Virus genome (UHGV): UHGV-0041029 | Origin: a virus | Direction: 5' to 3' (one strand) | Length of the DNA stretch: 15,376 nt | In this document: in pieces, positions 6,139-14,309 of the stretch | How the letters are laid out: the number at the start of each line of letters is the position of its first letter | Position numbering within the stretch: position 1 is the stretch's first letter | The notes under the pieces: generated by a model | What the model saw: only the letters and a program-made list of their open reading frames with translations | The model's database searches: none | What the model was told of the DNA's origin: nothing | Made by a program: the position numbers and the translations under genes

Positions 6139-7162
<1,024 letters not shown>

Positions 7163-7407
7163 ATTAATATTAAATCGGATTATTTTTAGCGCTGAATGTG
7201 AAATTTAAATAAAAAGGACTCTTCCATGAGTCAAAATCCTTGAAATCTTAAGGGTAAGATAAAAGGTCATTAGACAGAATGACACGTTTTATTAATAAAT
7301 AAAGCTATTGTTTCATTCGTGTGTTTTTCTTTACAAAAGTAATCCTTGCTATGGTTGGTTAATCATGCGTTAATGGTGTTCTGGTTTGTTACAAAATTAT
7401 CTGAAGC

Positions 7408-7430
7408 AGTCATTGTTATAATTTTATTAT
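7408..7430 (+). promoter_or_regulatory. Candidate extended -10 promoter (TGnTATAAT) for the cold-shock gene with long 5' UTR
   Basis: tgttataat at 7414-7422 inside an AT-rich leader about 100 nt before the cspI-like start. CspA-family genes typically have long structured 5' UTRs. No convincing -35 seen. Confidence 0.3.
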
Positions 7431-7522
7431 TTGTACCTCTTGAGATTTCCTTGTTGGTTTTTCTCTCTGATATTTTTTTTCGGACCATTCTGCCCAAGGG
7501 CTAACTTCTTCAAAAGGTAATA

Positions 7523-7738
7523 ATGATGTCTAACAAAATGACTGGTTTAGTGAAATGGTTTAACCCTGAAAAAGGTTTTGGTTTCATCACGCCGAAAGAT
7601 GGTAGCAAAGATGTGTTTGTGCATTTCTCAGCTATTCAGAGCAACGATTTCAAAACGTTAACTGAGAATCAGGAAGTCGAATTTGGTATTGAGAACGGAC
7701 CTAAAGGCCCTGCAGCTGTTCATGTAGTGGCACTTTGA
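7523..7738 (+). CDS. cspI: CspA-family cold-shock protein
   Basis: [23 protein letters not shown]...VFVHFSAIQ carries the RNP1/RNP2 cold-shock domain motifs. ATGATG start, so the true start may be 7526 giving 70 aa. Symbol given from Qin-like context (followed by ynfN-like and gnsB-like genes); paralogue identity is not certain. Confidence 0.85.
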
Positions 7739-7942
7739 GGTAGAAAATATTACAAACCATATTCACTTTAGATGCCCGTGTTGCCATGGTTCTCAGTATA
7801 GAACATCATCTTTTGATGTTTCTGACAGAAATCCTTTCGGGGCAAAATGTATCTTTTGTAAATCAATGATGATTACATTTGATAATATTTCACAATACTT
7901 AAATGTTAGCCATCTGTCGTTAGATTTAAGAAAGTGAAAATG

Positions 7943-7966
7943 AAGGCTCCTTCGGGAGCTTTTTTG
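7943..7966 (+). terminator. Rho-independent terminator
   Basis: Stem ggctcc (7945-7950), loop ttcg, stem ggagct (7955-7960), followed by tttttt. Confidence 0.55.
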
Positions 7967-8084
7967 CTTAGTGTCTAGTCGATGGATACTCACATATTAC
8001 GGTAACATTATGAAAAAAATAATAGTTTTTTTTAACTCTGAACCAGCAATGGTAGTGCCAGTGATGACCGGAGTTAACACCATC

Positions 8085-8240
8085 ATGCGTGAATATCCAA
8101 ATGGCGAAACAACACACCTCACTGTAATGGCTGCAGGGTTTCCATCTCTGACCGGAGATCATAAAGTCATTTATGTAGCAGCGGATCGACATGTAACTTC
8201 AGAAGAAATTCTGGAAGCAGCAATGAGACTCTTGAATTGA
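8085..8240 (+). CDS. ynfN: Small prophage protein, YnfN-like
   Basis: 51-aa product from the ATG at 8085, with GGAG 10 nt upstream. Sits between the cspI-like and gnsB-like genes as in Qin. The same frame is open back to 7971, so a longer product cannot be excluded. Confidence 0.45.
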   Translation: MREYPNGETTHLTVMAAGFPSLTGDHKVIYVAADRHVTSEEILEAAMRLLN

Positions 8241-8412
8241 TTTGATTCTAATGCATTGATAATAAATGATAATCATCTTTATCTGTTTGTGTGAAATTTA
8301 GACCGTCGTATGTTGATTATTGCGATGTTTCATCTTATCTTTTATACGTTTGCTCCATATAATTGACACTACTGTGTACCAGGACAGTCATAACAGACTA
8401 AAAGAGGAAATG

Positions 8413-8586
8413 ATGAACATTGAAGAGTTAAAAACAAAAACAGAAGCAGATATTTCTGAATATATAACAAAAAAAATCATTGAGCTTAAGAAAAAGACCG
8501 GGAAAGAAGTTACCAGTATCCAGTTTACTGCACGGGAAAAAATGACTGGTCTTGAAAGCTATGATATCAAGATTGATTTAATCTAG
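8413..8586 (+). CDS. gnsB: GnsA/GnsB-family small protein
   Basis: 57-aa product MNIEELKTKTEADISEYITKKIIELKKKTGKEVTSIQFTAREKMTGLESYDIKIDLI matches the GnsA/GnsB family. aagagg RBS 5 nt before the ATG at 8413; the track ORF from 8320 is an unsupported extension. Confidence 0.8.
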   Translation: MNIEELKTKTEADISEYITKKIIELKKKTGKEVTSIQFTAREKMTGLESYDIKIDLI

Positions 8587-8650
8587 CATGTTTATAGTAT
8601 TAGCATCAATTTCTCATCAGATGCTATTCAACAATACAAATTACCCATAA

Positions 8651-8676
8651 ACCTCGTTTTTACGGGGTTTTGTTAT
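8651..8676 (+). terminator. Rho-independent terminator after the gnsB-like gene
   Basis: cctcgt-tttt-acgggg hairpin (one G-U pair) followed by ttttgtt. Confidence 0.45.
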
Positions 8677-8881
8677 ATTTAAACATTACCGAATAGATAT
8701 AAATCTCGATTGTCGATGGTATTGGTTGTGTGACAATACCTAGTCTTTCCGGTATGCCTGAAGAGAATACAAACGACAGATTATGTAAGGGAAACGCGCT
8801 GAAACTTTCACTCTTTCATGCTGAGTGATTTGACGTTATATTTTTAGCCGCAAGTGAAGAGCAAACGAATGGAGCGACAAA

Positions 8882-9088
8882 ATGCATAAAGATCAATACA
8901 CTGATGCCCCCTCCCAGGAGCAGGTTCGTGTAAAAACTATGCTTAATAGCACCATTTCGATGGGTTACCCGGATGTTGTAATTGCATGTATAGAACATCA
9001 AGTATCTCTGGAAGCATTCAGGGCAATTGAGGCCGCGTTAGTAAAGCACGATAAGAATACGAAGGATTATTCCCTGGTGGTTGACTGA
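8882..9088 (+). CDS. Hypothetical protein (68 aa)
   Basis: ORF with GGAG 7 nt upstream of the ATG. No family recognised. Confidence 0.4.
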
Positions 9089-9439
9089 TCACCATAACTG
9101 CTAACCATTCTGACCATTTCACAAGTGACAGAGTCAATATCGTATTCTGTCACTGTAAGGCTAATACAGTACTGCAATTCAACTACAGCAATGCCTCGTA
9201 TTTAGGTGAATTTACAATATCGTCCAGTTCGGATGCCGGCTGCATTTCTGAAGATAAGGCATTTCGGTTCGCGTATTTTCCCCTCATGCTCGTCAGTCCT
9301 GCGCGTAGTAAGAAACAGGACACTCACACTAATTTGTGTGGGCATGCTGTGATGTCCTTCTGAATTATCCCCATGCCATTATGTAAAGCTCTGTTTCAGA
9401 TGCTCGTCACGGTTGTCAGGCTGTCGGGTCCTCCCAGTG

Positions 9440-9480
9440 GGGGTCCCTGCCACGGGGCGGGAGCGTCGCGGAAAAAGACT
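9440..9480. other. Candidate cos site (cosN-like, lambda-type cohesive end)
   Basis: ccacgGGGCGGGAGCGTCGCGG (9451-9471) resembles the lambda cosN context acgGGGCGGCGACCTCGCGG. It lies about 195 bp upstream of the small-terminase start, close to the roughly 190 bp spacing in lambda as I recall it. The lambda sequence is quoted from memory. Confidence 0.4.
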
Positions 9481-9649
9481 AGTTTTTGCATTTCCATGGC
9501 GGCGGCAGCATGTTTGGTAATTTATTGATAATTAAAAGTTATTTCTCTTTTCACCTGTACAATATTTTTTCTCCCTGTTATTAGACCAGTTTGCAATTAA
9601 TTGAAATATATAAATAAACCTGATTTTCACCTGCCAGATGGAGTTGCTT

Positions 9650-10177
9650 ATGTCAAATGTGAGCGGGATCGGTGATGCTTATTACTGGAGTGTTTTTAAA
9701 ATCGCCGAGGCCTTTGGGCTTCACCGGGACACAGTAAAAAAACGGCTCCTCGCGGCCAACACTCCTGTGGCTGCGACTGTCAGGGGGAACCCCGTTTACG
9801 CCCTGCAGCATGTCGGGCCCGCCCTGTTTAGTGTGAAGCATGAGGCAGCAGACTCTGTTCATGATCCATCCCGTATGGAGCCGAAAGAGAGAAAAGACTG
9901 GTACCAGTCTGAAAATGAAAGGATCAAGCTGGAAAAGGAGCAGCGAAAACTCATCCCAGTTGATGAAGTAGTCATCGTCTATTCGTCCATGAGAAAGGCT
10001 GTCGTCCAGGTTCTGGAGACAATTCCGGATGTTCTTGAACGCGATTGCGCCCTGACTCCTCAGGCCGTCGGCGTTGTACAGCAGGCCATTGATGACCTGC
10101 GATACACTCTTCAGGAAAAATCCTACGAGGCTTGTGCTGCTGAATTAATTCCTGATGAGGAAGGAGAGAGTCTCTAG
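9650..10177 (+). CDS. Terminase small subunit (Nu1-like DNA-packaging protein)
   Basis: About 175 aa from the ATG at 9650 (GGAG 6 nt upstream). N-terminal HTH-like segment (YYWSVFKIAEAFGLHRDTVKKRL), acidic C-terminus, immediately upstream of and coupled to the large terminase. Family call from architecture and context. Confidence 0.65.
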   Translation: MSNVSGIGDAYYWSVFKIAEAFGLHRDTVKKRLLAANTPVAATVRGNPVYALQHVGPALFSVKHEAADSVHDPSRMEPKERKDWYQSENERIKLEKEQRKLIPVDEVVIVYSSMRKAVVQVLETIPDVLERDCALTPQAVGVVQQAIDDLRYTLQEKSYEACAAELIPDEEGESL

Positions 10178-10185
10178 GAGGAATA

Positions 10186-11919
10186 ATGGGTTTTTCATCA
10201 GCCCGAAATTTGGGAAGGGACATATCGGCAGGATTTTCCCCACCACGTCGCATGCCGATTTCGGAGGCTGTTAAAAAATTCATGCGTGTTCCCAAGGGGG
10301 CTGGTAACTCGGTGCCATGGGATCCTGAACTGACACCCTACATCATTGAGCCCATGAACTGCCTGGCATCGCGTGAATACGATGCGGTGATTTTTGTTGG
10401 TCCTGCGCGAACAGGGAAGACCATTGGTCTGATCGATGGATGGATTGTCTATACCATCGTTTGCGATCCTTCGGACATGCTCGTTGTGCAGATGACCGAA
10501 GATAAGGCCCGCGAGCATTCTAAAAAGCGCCTCGACAGAACGTTCAGAAGCAGTGCGGCGGTAAAGAAAAGAATGAGTCCACGTCGTAACGACAATAATG
10601 TCCATGATAAGACGTTCAGGGATGGCTCGTTCCTTAAAATTGGTTGGCCCTCGGTCAACATTATGTCGTCGTCGGATTACCGGTTTGTCGCCTTAACCGA
10701 TTACGACCGTTTTCCGGAGAATATCGACAGCGAGGGTGATGGTTTCTCCCTAGCCTCAAAACGTACCACCACATTTATGTCCGCCGGGATGACTCTGGTG
10801 GAGAGCTCGCCGGGACGTGACATCTGCGACAGCAAATGGCGACGTAAGTCGCCTCATGAAGCGCCACCGACGACTGGTATTCTTTCCCTTTACAATCGTG
10901 GTGACCGCCGCCGCTGGTACTGGCCATGTCCGCACTGCGGTGAATATTTTCAGCCAGCTATGGATGCCATGACCGGCTACCGTAATGAACCGGATCCCTT
11001 TAAAGCCAGTGAGGCGGCGTATCTACTTTGCCCGCACTGCAGCGGCATTATCACTGCGGAGAAAAAGCGTGAGCTCAATAGTGCAGGAGTCTGGTTACGT
11101 GAAGGTCAGGTCATTGATCGTAACGGCAACGTTTCCGGTGAACCGCGCCGCTCCCGTATCGCCAGTTTCTGGATGGAAGGGCCAGCTGCTGCGTATCAGA
11201 CCTGGGCGCAACTGGTTTACAAATTACTGACTGCAGAACAGGAGTATGAAGCGACAGGAAGCGAAGAAACACTCAGGGCGGTTATCAACACCGACTGGGG
11301 ATTACCTTATCTTCCTCGTGCCAGCATGGAGCAACGAAAAAGTGAACTGCTTGAGCAGCGGGCAGAGCCAGTTCCTTCCCGCAGTGTTCCGGATGGCGTT
11401 AATTTCCTTGTGGCGACAGTGGATGTGCAGGCGGGACGTCATCGCCGTTTTGTGGTTCAGGTAACGGGCTATGGCAGCCGTGGCGAACGCTGGATTATTG
11501 ATCGTTACAACATCACGCAGTCATTGCGCAGTGACTGCGACGGGGAGAGCCAGCGAATTGATCCGGCCAGCTATCCGGAAGACTGGGATGTCCTGCTGGG
11601 GAGCTGGTTTTACGACGAACTGACGTATGAAGAGCGGAGCAGTGACGGGAAATGGAGTAAGCCGGGTCGCGGTGCCAACGAAGCTTTTGACCTGATGGTG
11701 TATGCCGAGGCGCTGGTCATTCTGCATGGATACGAAAAGATCCGCTGGCCGGATGCACCGGAGTGGGCGAGCCGGGAAACCTGGCTGGAGTGTGTCCCGG
11801 ACAGTACCGAACCGTCACCCTCACCGGAGCCGGTATCCACGCCTGTTAAAAAACAAAAACGGAAGAAAACAGTAACTGACGATGTTAACCCCTGGCTGAC
11901 TTCCGGAGGATGGTTATGA
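10186..11919 (+). CDS. Terminase large subunit, lambda gpA family
   Basis: 577 aa. Walker A P-loop (VIFVGPARTGKT), Cys-rich motifs (WYWPCPHCGEYF and LLCPHCSGI) comparable to the lambda gpA CPHC region, and a C-terminal nuclease-type region. Confidence 0.85.
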   Translation: MGFSSARNLGRDISAGFSPPRRMPISEAVKKFMRVPKGAGNSVPWDPELTPYIIEPMNCLASREYDAVIFVGPARTGKTIGLIDGWIVYTIVCDPSDMLVVQMTEDKAREHSKKRLDRTFRSSAAVKKRMSPRRNDNNVHDKTFRDGSFLKIGWPSVNIMSSSDYRFVALTDYDRFPENIDSEGDGFSLASKRTTTFMSAGMTLVESSPGRDICDSKWRRKSPHEAPPTTGILSLYNRGDRRRWYWPCPHCGEYFQPAMDAMTGYRNEPDPFKASEAAYLLCPHCSGIITAEKKRELNSAGVWLREGQVIDRNGNVSGEPRRSRIASFWMEGPAAAYQTWAQLVYKLLTAEQEYEATGSEETLRAVINTDWGLPYLPRASMEQRKSELLEQRAEPVPSRSVPDGVNFLVATVDVQAGRHRRFVVQVTGYGSRGERWIIDRYNITQSLRSDCDGESQRIDPASYPEDWDVLLGSWFYDELTYEERSSDGKWSKPGRGANEAFDLMVYAEALVILHGYEKIRWPDAPEWASRETWLECVPDSTEPSPSPEPVSTPVKKQKRKKTVTDDVNPWLTSGGWL

Positions 11920-11960
11920 ATCAGAATGATATTGAAGCCATGATTCAGCGTTATGGGTGA
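11916..11960 (+). pseudogene. 5' stub (14 codons) of the gene that followed terminase, truncated by deletion
   Basis: ATG overlaps the terminase stop (ATGA), typical coupling for the next head gene. The frame stops after MNQNDIEAMIQRYG, where tape-measure homology begins in another frame. Confidence 0.3.
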
Positions 11961-12798
11961 TCAGCAGCGGCAGCGATATCAGGTACAACTGAGTCTTCGC
12001 CAGAAATACCAGCAACAGCTGGAGCAGTTGAGGCGGGATAGTGAGCAGAAAGGAATATATAACACGGATGACTACAGAAAGGCCGAGCAGGCGCTGACGG
12101 AGAGCCTGAACCGACAACTGAATGAGAATCGCCGTTACTGGCAACAGCTTGAAGTTGTGCAGGGTAACTGGAAAAACGGAGTCCTGCGTGCATTTCAGAA
12201 TTTTACCGTGGATGCAGATAATACGGCAGGAACAGCAGAACAGGTGTTCTCGTCAGCCTTCAGCAACATGGGAAATGGCCTAGCAACTTTTGTCACTACC
12301 GGCAAACTCAATTTCAAATCCTTCACCTCTTCTGTGCTGTCAGATATGGCGAAAATCCTGGCGCAGGCAACCATGATGAAATCGATAAAAGGGATTGGCA
12401 GTGTACTGGGATTTGATCTCAGCAGCCTTTCCCTGAATGCCAATGGGGGGATTTATCAGTCTGCTGATTTGAGTCGTTACAGTGGCACGGTGGTTAACCG
12501 TCCGACGTTTTTTGCTTTTGCAAAAGGCGCGGGTGTGATGGGGGAAGCGGGACCTGAAGCCATTCTGCCACTGCGTCGTGGTGCTGACGGTAAGCTGGGG
12601 GTTGTGGCGGATATTGGTGGTTCAGGTATGGCGATGTTTGCCCCGCAGTACAACATCGAGATCAATAACGATGGCACGAACGGGCAGATAGGTCCGGCTG
12701 CCCTGAAGGTGGTTTATGACCTCGGGAAAAAAGCGGCAGCGGACTTTATGCAACAGCAGGCCCGTGATGGTGGTCGGTTAAGTGGAGCATATCGGTAA
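11953..12798 (+). pseudogene. C-terminal fragment (about 280 aa) of a lambda-like tail tape measure protein (gpH)
   Basis: The C-terminus (NIEINNDGTNGQIGPAALKVVYD...ARDGGRLSGAYR) parallels the lambda gpH C-terminus (VINNDGTNGQIGPAALKAVYD...MRDGGLFSGGGR). The stop overlaps the gpM start (TAATG). No N-terminal 500+ aa present. Confidence 0.8.
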
Positions 12799-13127
12799 TG
12801 GAGACGTTTCACTGGAAAGTGCGCCCGGATATGAATGTGGTATCAGAGCCGAAAGTGGTGACAGTGAAGCTGGGCGATGGTTATGAACAGCGTCGTGCGG
12901 CGGGACTGAATAACCAGTTGTCGATTTACAGCGTGACGATACGTGTTCGTAAATGTGAACACCCATCTTTAAAAGCCTTTCTGGAACGGCACGGTGGCGT
13001 CCGCGCATTTCAGTGGACGCCACCTTATGACTGGAAGCCGATCAGGGTGGTTTGTCGTAAATGGTCGGCAAGCGTGGGGGCGCTGTGGGTAACCATAACG
13101 GCAGATTTTGAACAGGTCGTGGCATAG
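12798..13127 (+). CDS. Minor tail protein M (lambda gpM homologue)
   Basis: 109 aa, METFHWKVRPDMNVVSEPKVV...EFQWTPPYDWKPIRVVCRKWSA...DFEQVVA, collinear with lambda gpM and the same length. Confidence 0.85.
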   Translation: METFHWKVRPDMNVVSEPKVVTVKLGDGYEQRRAAGLNNQLSIYSVTIRVRKCEHPSLKAFLERHGGVRAFQWTPPYDWKPIRVVCRKWSASVGALWVTITADFEQVVA

Positions 13128-13136
13128 GAGGCCCTG

Positions 13137-13409
13137 ATGCAGGATATTTCACAGGAAACACATCATGAGACGACACGCCTCACTCAGTCAGCCCAGGTGG
13201 TGCTCTGGGAAATCGATCTGACCGAGGTAGGCGGGGATCGCTACTTTTTCTGTAATGAGCAGAACGAAAAAGGTGAGTCTGTCACCTGGCAGAGTCGGCA
13301 GTATCAGGCCTATCCCATTCAGGGGAGTGGATTTGAGATGAACGGCAAGGGCAGTGCTGCCCGTCCGACACTGACGGTCTCTAACCTGCACGGCATGATC
13401 ACCGGGATG
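13137..13409 (+). pseudogene. N-terminal fragment (about 91 aa) of minor tail protein L (lambda gpL homologue)
   Basis: MQDISQETHHETTRLTQSAQVVLWEIDLTEVGGDRYFFCNEQNEKGESVTWQSRQYQAYPIQGSGFEMNGKG...TLTVSNLHGMITGM matches the lambda gpL N-terminus. Homology stops near 13409; the open frame runs on to 13523 through unrelated sequence, which is gpJ read out of frame. Confidence 0.8.
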
Positions 13410-13876
13410 GGAATACCAACATCGCCGGTGTCACGGTGGTGTTCCGGGCTGGTGAGCAGGAGCAGACTCCGCCGGAGGGATTTGAATCCTCCGGCTCCGA
13501 GACGGTGTTGGGTACGGAAGTGAAATACGACACGCCGATCACCCGCGCCATCACGTCGGCAAACATCGACCGTCTGCGCTTTACCTTCGGTGTGCAGGCA
13601 CTGGTGGAAACCACCTCAAAGGGGGACCGGAATCCGTCGGAAGTTCGCCTGCTGGTTCAGATACAGCGTAATGGTGGCTGGGTGACGGAAAAAGACATCA
13701 CCATTAAGGGCAAAACCACCTCGCAGTATCTGGCCTCGGTGGTGGTGGATAACCTGCCGCCGCGCCCGTTTAATATCCGGATGCGCAGAATGACGCCGGA
13801 CAGCACCACAGACCAGCTGCAGAACAAAACGCTCTGGTCGTCATACACCGAAATCATCGATGTGAAACAGTGCTAT
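13409..13876 (+). pseudogene. Internal fragment of tail tip/host-specificity protein J (lambda gpJ, about residues 55-220)
   Basis: NTNIAGVTVVFRAGEQEQTPPEGFESSGSETVLGTEVKYDTPITR...[18 protein letters not shown] is near-identical to the lambda gpJ N-terminal region as recalled. It lacks the gpJ start and the C-terminal 900 or so residues. Confidence 0.8.
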
Positions 13877-14309
13877 TCCAGCTGGCTTCGTGGCTGTTTT
13901 CAACAGTGATGAGTCATCGTGGCATCTCGTTGAAGATCATCGGGGTAAAACGGTTTATGACGTGGCTTCCGGCGACGCGTTATTTATTTCTGAACTCGGC
14001 TCATTACCGGAAAATGTCACCTGGTTATCCCCGGAAGGGGAGTTTCAGAAGTGGAACGGCACAGCCTGGGTGAAAGATGCAGAAGCAGAAAAACTATTCC
14101 GGATCCGGGAGGCGGAAGAAACAAAAAACAGCCTGATGCAGGCAGCGAATGAGCATATTGCGCCACTTCAGGATGCTGTAGATCTGGAAATCGCAACGGA
14201 GGAAGAAAACTCGTTGCTGGAAGCCTGGAAAAAGTATCGGGTGTTGCTGAACCGTGTTAATACAACAACTGCACCGGATATTGAATGGCCAGTAGCACCT
14301 ATAGGGTAA
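13875..14309 (+). pseudogene. C-terminal fragment of tail fibre assembly protein (Tfa family)
   Basis: [67 protein letters not shown]... matches Tfa proteins (TfaQ/TfaE-like). Homology starts abruptly at the gpJ junction, so the N-terminal 50-60 residues are missing. An in-frame GTG/ATG could still allow a truncated product. Confidence 0.75.

Follow-up and report, generated by a model that had tools for sequence, protein, structure and literature searches.

The closest known counterpart of the DNA analysed here is the cold-shock gene cluster of the Qin prophage in Escherichia coli K-12, in which cspI, ynfQ, ynfR, ynfN and gnsB (b1552, b4724, b4749, b1551 and b1550) follow one another downstream of essQ-ydfR-rrrQ-rzpQ. 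The DNA is the virus genome UHGV-0041029, a stretch of 15,376 nucleotides (nt) that is referred to in its entirety as the window. The subject is its interval 7163–9100 and, within it, the gene ynfQ, which begins with ATT and lies directly downstream of the cold-shock gene cspI. The interval has the Qin genes in the same order and on the same strand. It very probably represents a cspI-ynfQ-(ynfR remnant)-ynfN-gnsB cold-shock "moron" cassette that a defective lambdoid prophage of the Qin type carries in its late region, with an open reading frame (ORF) of the ybcW/lambda p79 type after it. That it is a nearly identical copy of the Qin cassette of K-12, and a paralogue of the chromosomal cluster cspG-ymcF-ymcE-gnsA, is stated with the same high confidence. 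Such a cassette is already known; all genes of the interval fall into named or catalogued families and have RefSeq annotations.

A comparison with K-12 shows that CspI is 100% identical to its Qin counterpart (79% to CspG), YnfQ 94% (69% to YmcF), YnfN 94% over the 51 amino acids (aa) of the K-12 protein, GnsB 93% (65% to GnsA) and the cspI leader 97%. Common to both are the 10-nt distance between cspI and ynfQ, the terminator hairpin and the start at ATT. The two cassettes differ in that ynfR has 21 codons in K-12 and 12 in the window, and in that ynfN carries a 1-nt deletion in K-12 but is intact, with 76 aa, in the window. Downstream, K-12 has ydfO-ynfO-nohA, whereas the window has the ybcW/p79-like ORF and a DUF1441 small terminase gene.

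The chromosomal cspG-ymcF-ymcE-gnsA cluster of K-12 is similar in that a csp gene is followed 10 nt on by an ATT-start ymcF, with an AGG over the csp stop codon, and then by a gene of the GnsA/GnsB family. It is located outside any prophage late region, however, and its middle gene, ymcE, is unrelated to ynfN. In addition, ymcE overlaps the end of ymcF, where the window has a terminator, and cspG ends in CTC TAA rather than the CTT TGA of cspI. YmcF and YnfQ are reportedly the two nonannotated cold-shock microproteins of D'Lima et al. 2017; their ATT starts are said to have been mapped in K-12, and both proteins to accumulate after cold shock. The paper is cited by others in connection with AUU initiation.

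The ynfQ gene downstream of cspI

The features on which this section depends are as follows.

7526–7738, plus strand: cspI, cold-shock protein CspI, 70 aa (K-12 identity, PF00313, RefSeq)
7737–7740, plus strand: Shine-Dalgarno-like GAGG for ynfQ, 8 nt upstream of the ATT and overlapping the cspI TGA at 7736–7738
7749–7937, plus strand: ynfQ, a ymcF-family gene for a 62-aa C4 zinc-ribbon cold-shock microprotein, ATT start (PF23641, RefSeq coding sequence)
7942–7965, plus strand: intrinsic terminator-like hairpin directly after ynfQ, with a GC-rich stem, a UUCG loop and T6 (sequence and fold)

The segment 7739–7942 was described in an earlier note on this DNA as about 200 bp of untranslated, unexplained sequence before a terminator. 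The terminator is present, as a hairpin and T6 at 7942–7965, but the segment holds a gene of 62 codons. Its ATT, at 7749, is 10 nt after the cspI stop, and its frame is open from 7728 to the TGA at 7935–7937 and encodes ...ITNHIHFRCPCCHGSQYRTS...GAKCIFCKS.... The gene is absent from the ORF list because it starts with ATT and has no ATG, GTG or TTG before an internal Met-Met.

The encoded protein matches the YmcF-like family PF23641 over positions 1–62 of 62, with 116.5 bits (cut-off 27) and E = 6.2e-34. Identical copies of the DNA carry a RefSeq coding sequence (CDS) named "cold shock small protein YmcF" at the same coordinates; here and below, coordinates of RefSeq features are those of the annotation of an identical copy, converted to window positions. 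A protein search returned 131 YnfQ homologues, essentially all from Enterobacteriaceae, and where the source gives a name, it is "cold shock small protein YmcF" or "cold-shock protein". Among 75 distinct homologous DNA sequences, 46 of 47 codons vary at the third position and 17 of 47 at the second. The ynfQ frame is without stop codons in all 81 copies compared (80 related loci, one genome per species, and the window), a property that the other five frames rarely have. The third-position variation and the frame that is open in every copy show that 7749–7937 is protein-coding and under purifying selection.

The alternative, that the segment is an untranslated RNA, either a long 3' untranslated region (UTR) or a small RNA ahead of the terminator, derives from two properties of 7739–7942. 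There is no ORF of at least 30 aa on the plus strand that starts with ATG, GTG or TTG, and the segment ends in a terminator, as do many small RNAs derived from 3' UTRs. The full-length PF23641 match, the ATT-start CDS of RefSeq, the codon periodicity and the open frame are in conflict with it, as is the presence of ATG at the position of the ynfQ start in 18 of the related loci. An Rfam E-value search of positions 6500–9800 found the cspA thermoregulator and no other family, and the reading as a small or structured RNA was rejected. In K-12 the protein has reportedly been detected with its ATT start (D'Lima et al. 2017), which also counts against an untranslated RNA. This explanation is thus highly improbable, and it is unnecessary because the segment is a gene of the ynfQ/ymcF family. 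A real and conserved gene can therefore be read as non-coding when its start is ATT, and ORF finders limited to ATG, GTG and TTG miss ynfQ.

YnfQ has the four-cysteine core of the YmcF-like family, HFRCPCCHGSQYR ... GAKCIFCK, in a protein of about 62 aa. Cys9, Cys12 and Cys37 are invariant and Cys34 nearly so in 27 aligned members. The AlphaFold model has a predicted local distance difference test score (pLDDT) of 75.6 overall and above 90 over residues ~11–40, and displays four short strands with Cys9, Cys12, Cys34 and Cys37. By prediction, the protein is a small zinc ribbon with four cysteines, and its C-terminal tail is disordered. Foldseek comparison of the model gave only weak matches, with E of 0.4 or more throughout, to zinc-ribbon proteins, among them TFIIE-alpha and a eukaryotic 60S ribosomal protein chain. 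A profile search of PDB sequences gave no meaningful match, i.e., no solved relative by sequence, and in NCBIfam there is a sub-threshold match to the ECs_2282 CxxC family and no more.

Start codon identity and the adjoining csp gene

The codon aligned with ATT 7749 was compared in the same 81 copies. It is ATT in 59, ATC in 4 and ATG in 18. An intact csp gene ends 9–10 nt upstream in 51 copies, the window included, and here the start codon is ATT in 47, ATC in 4 and ATG in none. The distance from the csp stop to the ymcF start is 10 nt in 43 of these copies and 9 nt in the other 8. The remaining 30 copies are without an adjoining intact csp, and the 18 ATG genes are all among them, i.e., all ATG genes stand alone. 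A T[AG]AGG sequence overlaps the csp stop codon in 51 of 51 csp-adjacent copies, 8–9 nt before the start, and its AGG core would serve as the ynfQ Shine-Dalgarno sequence.

Since ATT or ATC is found in every copy adjacent to csp, and every ATG copy is without an intact csp, the pattern suggests that translation of ynfQ is coupled to that of csp by termination and reinitiation. In Klebsiella and Raoultella, the ATG-start ymcF has upstream of it a recognisable, stop-ridden remnant of the csp 3' end (GTCCCTGCGGTAGTGAATGTTGTAGCA). Comparison of the sequences indicates that in these genera the start codon changed from ATT to ATG after, or along with, the decay of csp.

Other AUU starts are known in E. 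coli. Those of infC and pcnB give a low, regulatable initiation and offer a functional analogy to ynfQ. The AUU start of infC serves autoregulation of initiation factor 3 (IF3), whereas the comparative pattern of ynfQ points to dependence on the upstream csp ORF. It is possible, and is proposed tentatively, that the ATT or ATC start acts as a "coupling lock", such that only ribosomes fresh from termination on csp, 9–10 nt upstream, would make the microprotein. If so, YnfQ synthesis in the cold would be tied to that of Csp at a small, constant fraction, and lineages that lost csp would have had to switch the start to ATG to keep expression. The gene would then be a clean natural case of start-codon identity co-evolving with translational coupling. 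The sole new element of the analysis, a modest one, is the strict association of near-cognate starts with an intact upstream csp, which gives a testable hypothesis on how these microproteins are translated.

Several observations weigh against the coupling. The ATT start is kept in 12 loci that have no intact csp (Pseudescherichia, Atlantibacter and Citrobacter sp. NCU1), so coupling is not strictly needed for ATT to persist. In Atlantibacter, a csp remnant ORF of 29 codons ends at the same 10-nt distance. The association of start codon with csp is also phylogenetically clustered, with approximately three independent ATG lineages (Klebsiella/Raoultella, Silvania/Leclercia and C. sedlakii). Finally, IF3 discriminates against AUU and reportedly rises in the cold, which would oppose initiation at ATT.

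A second way in which ynfQ could be linked to cspI is a fusion. Because cspI ends in CTT TGA G, the shift site of prfB, and ynfQ lies in the +1 frame, a CspI-YnfQ fusion made by a prfB-like +1 frameshift at CUU UGA G (7733–7739), with no intervening stop, was tested. The heptamer core of prfB is indeed present at 7733–7739, and the +1 frame is open from 7728 into ynfQ. However, the last csp codon varies (CTT, CTC, GTA, CGC, CGT or CAC), as does the stop (TAA or TGA), such that the motif is not conserved and most of the 51 csp-adjacent copies differ from it; the CTC TAA of cspG-ymcF in K-12 is one example. The 9-nt gap of eight loci places ymcF in the csp frame and not in +1, and the 18 ATG copies stand without any csp. 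In the window, the sequence upstream, GTAGTGGCA, has no AGGGGG-like stimulator ~3 nt before CTT, and the Pfam model begins exactly at the ATT codon. With neither the relative frame nor the shift site conserved, and with ATG genes that stand alone, a prfB-type frameshift was rejected as a feature of the family and is most unlikely to operate here. Reinitiation at the ATT is the preferred reading.

Expression of the cassette and its other genes

The remaining features of the cassette are listed below.

7346–7374, plus strand: putative cspI sigma-70 promoter (read by eye from the sequence)
7381–7525, plus strand: cspI 5' untranslated leader, a cspA-type RNA thermometer, start approximate (Rfam RF01766)
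7940–7978, plus strand: truncated ynfR, 12 codons against 21 in K-12 (PGAP pseudo-CDS, "too short")
8010–8240, plus strand: ynfN, full-length form of 76 aa (phrog_3425, K-12 alignment)
8413–8586, plus strand: gnsB, 57 aa, GnsA/GnsB family (PF08178, PDB GnsA)
8649–8680, plus strand: terminator-like hairpin and T-rich tail after gnsB (consensus scan; 9-bp stem with 4 GC pairs)

The earlier note named a CspA-family gene with a long AT-rich leader, a YnfN-like protein and a GnsB-like protein, and all of these calls are borne out by the comparisons with K-12 and the family matches that follow. CspI consists of a single cold-shock domain of ~70 aa that carries RNP1 (KGFGFI) and RNP2 (VFVHF) and matches PF00313 with E = 1.7e-31 over model positions 1–65 of 66. 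The leader is more than AT-rich. The Rfam model RF01766, the cspA thermoregulator, matches positions 7368–7784 with 110.1 bits (gathering threshold 78) and E = 1.4e-28. The 360 nt upstream of cspI are 97% identical to the K-12 region, with 3 differences in the last ~160 nt (the 5' UTR).

The putative promoter has a -35 element TTGCTA (7346–7351), a 17-nt spacer and a TG-extended -10 element TGcGTTAAT at 7366–7374 (GTTAAT at 7369–7374), and is preceded by an AT-rich region at about 7280–7345. The -10 element resembles the TGgCTTAAT of the cspA promoter. A transcription start near 7381 would give a leader of ~145 nt, which is consistent with the ~145-nt cspI leader that Wang et al. 1999 are said to have found. 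In K-12, cspI is induced on temperature downshift, and its 5' UTR has been experimentally characterised as a protein-independent RNA thermometer (PMC13271884, there citing Wang et al. 1999 for the induction). Another hairpin, at 7217–7232 (GACTCTTCCATGAGTC), is found between rzpQ and the cspI promoter and is conserved in K-12; it is terminator-like on the minus strand only, where a T-run follows.

The hairpin after ynfQ has a 9-bp stem and is identical in K-12, and the 61-nt segment that contains it folds at -15.4 kcal/mol. A consensus scan reported the same 7942–7965 stem on the minus strand. The ynfR ORF begins 2 nt beyond the stop codon of ynfQ and runs across the hairpin in the window and in K-12 alike. 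Alignment shows that codon 13, TAT in K-12, is TAG in the window, and the truncation implies that the YnfR peptide is probably dispensable. A promoter scan between the terminator and ynfN showed nothing convincing, so ynfN and gnsB would most simply be expressed by read-through. Antitermination by Csp would be in keeping with what is established for CspA-family proteins. The K-12 YnfR-SPA fusion is strongly induced by cold shock (PMC6001520), and as its ORF lies across the terminator, the induction implies that transcription proceeds past this hairpin at low temperature.

YnfN matches phrog_3425 over positions 1–76 of 76 (E = 1e-55). The 51-aa form in K-12, which begins at an internal Met and has no N-terminus, is due to a 1-nt deletion in a T8 run near the 5' end (window 8010–8090). 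The AlphaFold model of YnfN (pLDDT 88) displays five strands and a C-terminal helix, and a comparison with PDB folds gave no match with E below 0.2. GnsB matches PF08178 with 114.5 bits (cut-off 27; E = 2.1e-33) and the solved structure of GnsA (PDB 4xo1/4xo2) with E of ~1e-19. NCBIfam has no family for YnfN, GnsB, the 68-aa ORF downstream or the small terminase.

The Pfam title of PF08178 is "GnsA/GnsB toxin of bacterial toxin-antitoxin system", PGAP names gnsB "addiction module toxin", and the small ORF ynfN is upstream, in the position of an antitoxin. These three points favour ynfN-gnsB as a toxin-antitoxin addiction module that stabilises the prophage, rather than a function in cold or membrane physiology. 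YnfN was considered as a homologue of YmcE, the proposed partner of GnsA, and rejected, as the identity is 20% in a forced alignment; no YmcE-like partner adjoins gnsB. The two genes are 172 nt apart and do not overlap, PADLOC gave no match to the pair, and K-12 pairs an N-terminally truncated ynfN with an intact gnsB. In the otherwise 99.8% identical prophage of strain EF7-18-58 the reverse is found, with gnsB annotated as frameshifted beside an intact ynfN, which speaks against an obligatory toxin-antitoxin relationship. When gnsA or gnsB is overexpressed, growth is not arrested; unsaturated fatty acids increase, and growth in the cold is rescued (bioRxiv 10.1101/2024.03.27.586906). An addiction module is therefore improbable, and a function in cold or membrane physiology is preferred.

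A working of the cassette in the lysogen may be proposed. Transcription from the cspA-type promoter (about 7346–7374) would give an mRNA with a thermometer leader of ~145 nt. At 37 °C the leader would hide the ribosome-binding site and start codon, and refolding in the cold would permit translation of CspI, as has been shown for the nearly identical K-12 leader. Ribosomes that end cspI at TGA (7736–7738) would be situated on the GAGG, and a fraction of them would re-initiate 10 nt on at the weak ATT of 7749. This would yield a small, cold-linked amount of YnfQ, the coupling being drawn from the comparative data. Most transcripts would stop at the hairpin and T6 (7942–7965), and read-through would carry ynfN and gnsB, a step suggested by K-12, where tagged YnfR, encoded across the terminator, is induced by cold. 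GnsB, judging from its overexpression, would raise the unsaturated fatty acids of the membrane. In lytic growth the same genes would also be on the Q-antiterminated late transcript, as their strand and position suggest.

Three further points detract from this scheme. The cspI promoter was read by eye and was missed by a simple consensus scan, which is explained by a -10 element that lacks the A at position 2. An unrecognised internal promoter could take the place of read-through at the terminator. The cold-shock expression proposed for the window cassette is by analogy with its K-12 counterparts.

Prophage context and the 68-aa reading frame

Matches to 7163–9100 are found in 2644 of 5426 complete E. 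coli genomes, and 1068 genomes (about one fifth of the 5426) have one place that spans 80% or more of the interval. The best matches are of full length at 100% identity, and many copies have 100% identity. The cassette thus represents a widespread prophage-borne copy of a host cold-shock module. In several E. coli genomes, an insertion of the IS2/IS3 family is located inside the 1.9-kb cassette, and the match is split into pieces ~1.3 kb apart.

In identical copies, RefSeq has cspI, ymcF, a "too short" CDS, ynfN, gnsB and a hypothetical protein at the same positions. The EF7-18-58 prophage shows the surroundings. It has hokD, rem, ydfU, the Q antiterminator gene, a lipocalin gene, ybgA, a gene for a helix-turn-helix protein and essD, then ydfR, rrrQ, rzpQ, cspI, ymcF, ynfN, gnsB and genes for the hypothetical protein and a DUF1441 protein. 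The last in this order is a C-terminally truncated large terminase gene fused to tail-fibre remnants. As the C-terminus of the large terminase is missing, the prophage is defective, like Qin in K-12. In the window, the large terminase ORF (10186–11919) has only 577 aa and is followed by a region at about 11950–14300; in a near-identical genome PGAP annotates the gene as "missing C-terminus", joined to remnants of tail-protein and tail-fibre-assembly genes.

A csp-ymcF pair followed by ynfN and/or gns is also present in loci of Escherichia, Shigella, Citrobacter, Trabulsiella, Yokenella and Scandinavium, and several of these loci adjoin lysis and terminase genes. Three loci are labelled as Veillonella parvula metagenome-assembled genome (MAG), Mucilaginibacter MAG and Chryseobacterium sp., and have csp-ymcF sequence of the E. 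coli or Scandinavium type; these labels probably reflect contamination or faulty binning in the public records. PADLOC defence-system models, when applied to the proteins of the interval, gave a generic cold-shock domain match to CspI and nothing else. The Weaver 2019 preprint and the TetRP paper make no mention of the cassette genes.

The surroundings bear on whether the cassette mainly serves the phage, such that CspI, as an RNA chaperone or antiterminator, and its partners on the Q-dependent late transcript would keep late mRNA translatable in the cold. The genes are on the late strand, between lysis and packaging genes and downstream of the Q antiterminator gene, cold-shock proteins form a phage protein family (phrog_729), and similar cassettes adjoin lysis and terminase genes in Citrobacter and Yokenella loci. 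On the other hand, the cassette still has its own thermometer leader of the cspA type, and this implies that it is expressed from the lysogen. Defective prophages incapable of forming particles have kept the cassette (the window, with its truncated large terminase gene, and K-12 Qin likewise), and a chromosomal paralogue exists outside any prophage. A mainly phage-serving role is considered unlikely, although it deserves some weight, and phage and host roles are not mutually exclusive. A cold-shock function in the lysogen is the preferred reading, and the earlier note's term "host-physiology genes" is reasonable for cspI and gnsB, with a known cold-shock protein and an effect on fatty acids, respectively. 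It does not apply to the 68-aa ORF at the end of the interval.

This ORF and the gene after it are as follows.

8882–9088, plus strand: 68-aa ORF, homologue of lambda p79 (NP_597782) and DLP12 YbcW (phrog_657, identity)
9638–10177: DUF1441 small terminase gene, 179 aa (RefSeq annotation, converted coordinates)

The 68-aa ORF has a good ribosome-binding site, as previously noted (GGAG, 8 nt upstream of the ATG), but it is not unassigned. Its protein has 79% identity over all 68 residues to lambda p79 (NP_597782, 47738–47944) and to YbcW of K-12, and matches phrog_657 over positions 1–68 of 68 with E = 4.6e-48. The family is present in 40 phage records, lambda among them, and all homologues listed are at least 74% identical. 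There is no Pfam, NCBIfam or PADLOC family for it. A relationship to YnfO of K-12 was considered and rejected, as there is no similarity. Hundreds of slightly divergent "homologues" are on ENA contigs of ~3.5 kb and inflate the apparent size of the family. These contigs look like error-containing copies of lambda right-end DNA, perhaps from a sequencing control.

The right end of lambda (Rz, bor, p78, p79, cos) and the corresponding region of DLP12 (rzpD, borD, ybcV, ybcW, nohD) have this ORF in the same place and on the same strand as the window, some hundreds of bases ahead of the small terminase gene in each case. They differ from the window in that minus-strand bor and p78 (borD and ybcV) are found where the window has the plus-strand cold-shock cassette, and in that the small terminase is of the Nu1/Noh type and not DUF1441. 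In lambda and DLP12 the ORF follows bor and p78, which implies that the cassette replaces bor and p78 and that the 68-aa ORF is part of the lambdoid backbone. The cluster is thus situated between the spanin gene and the packaging genes, as the earlier note had it. Its placement in the slot of lambda bor is correct for the cold-shock cassette (the bor/p78 region) and incorrect for the 68-aa ORF, which is a p79 homologue in p79's own place.

The title of that note also set the cluster's limit at cos, which was not located; the 12-mer of lambda cosN does not occur in the window. An AT-rich spacer of 550 nt separates the p79-like ORF from the DUF1441 small terminase gene, and a GC-rich patch within it, at 9410–9510, could be the cos or terminase-binding region of this type of phage.

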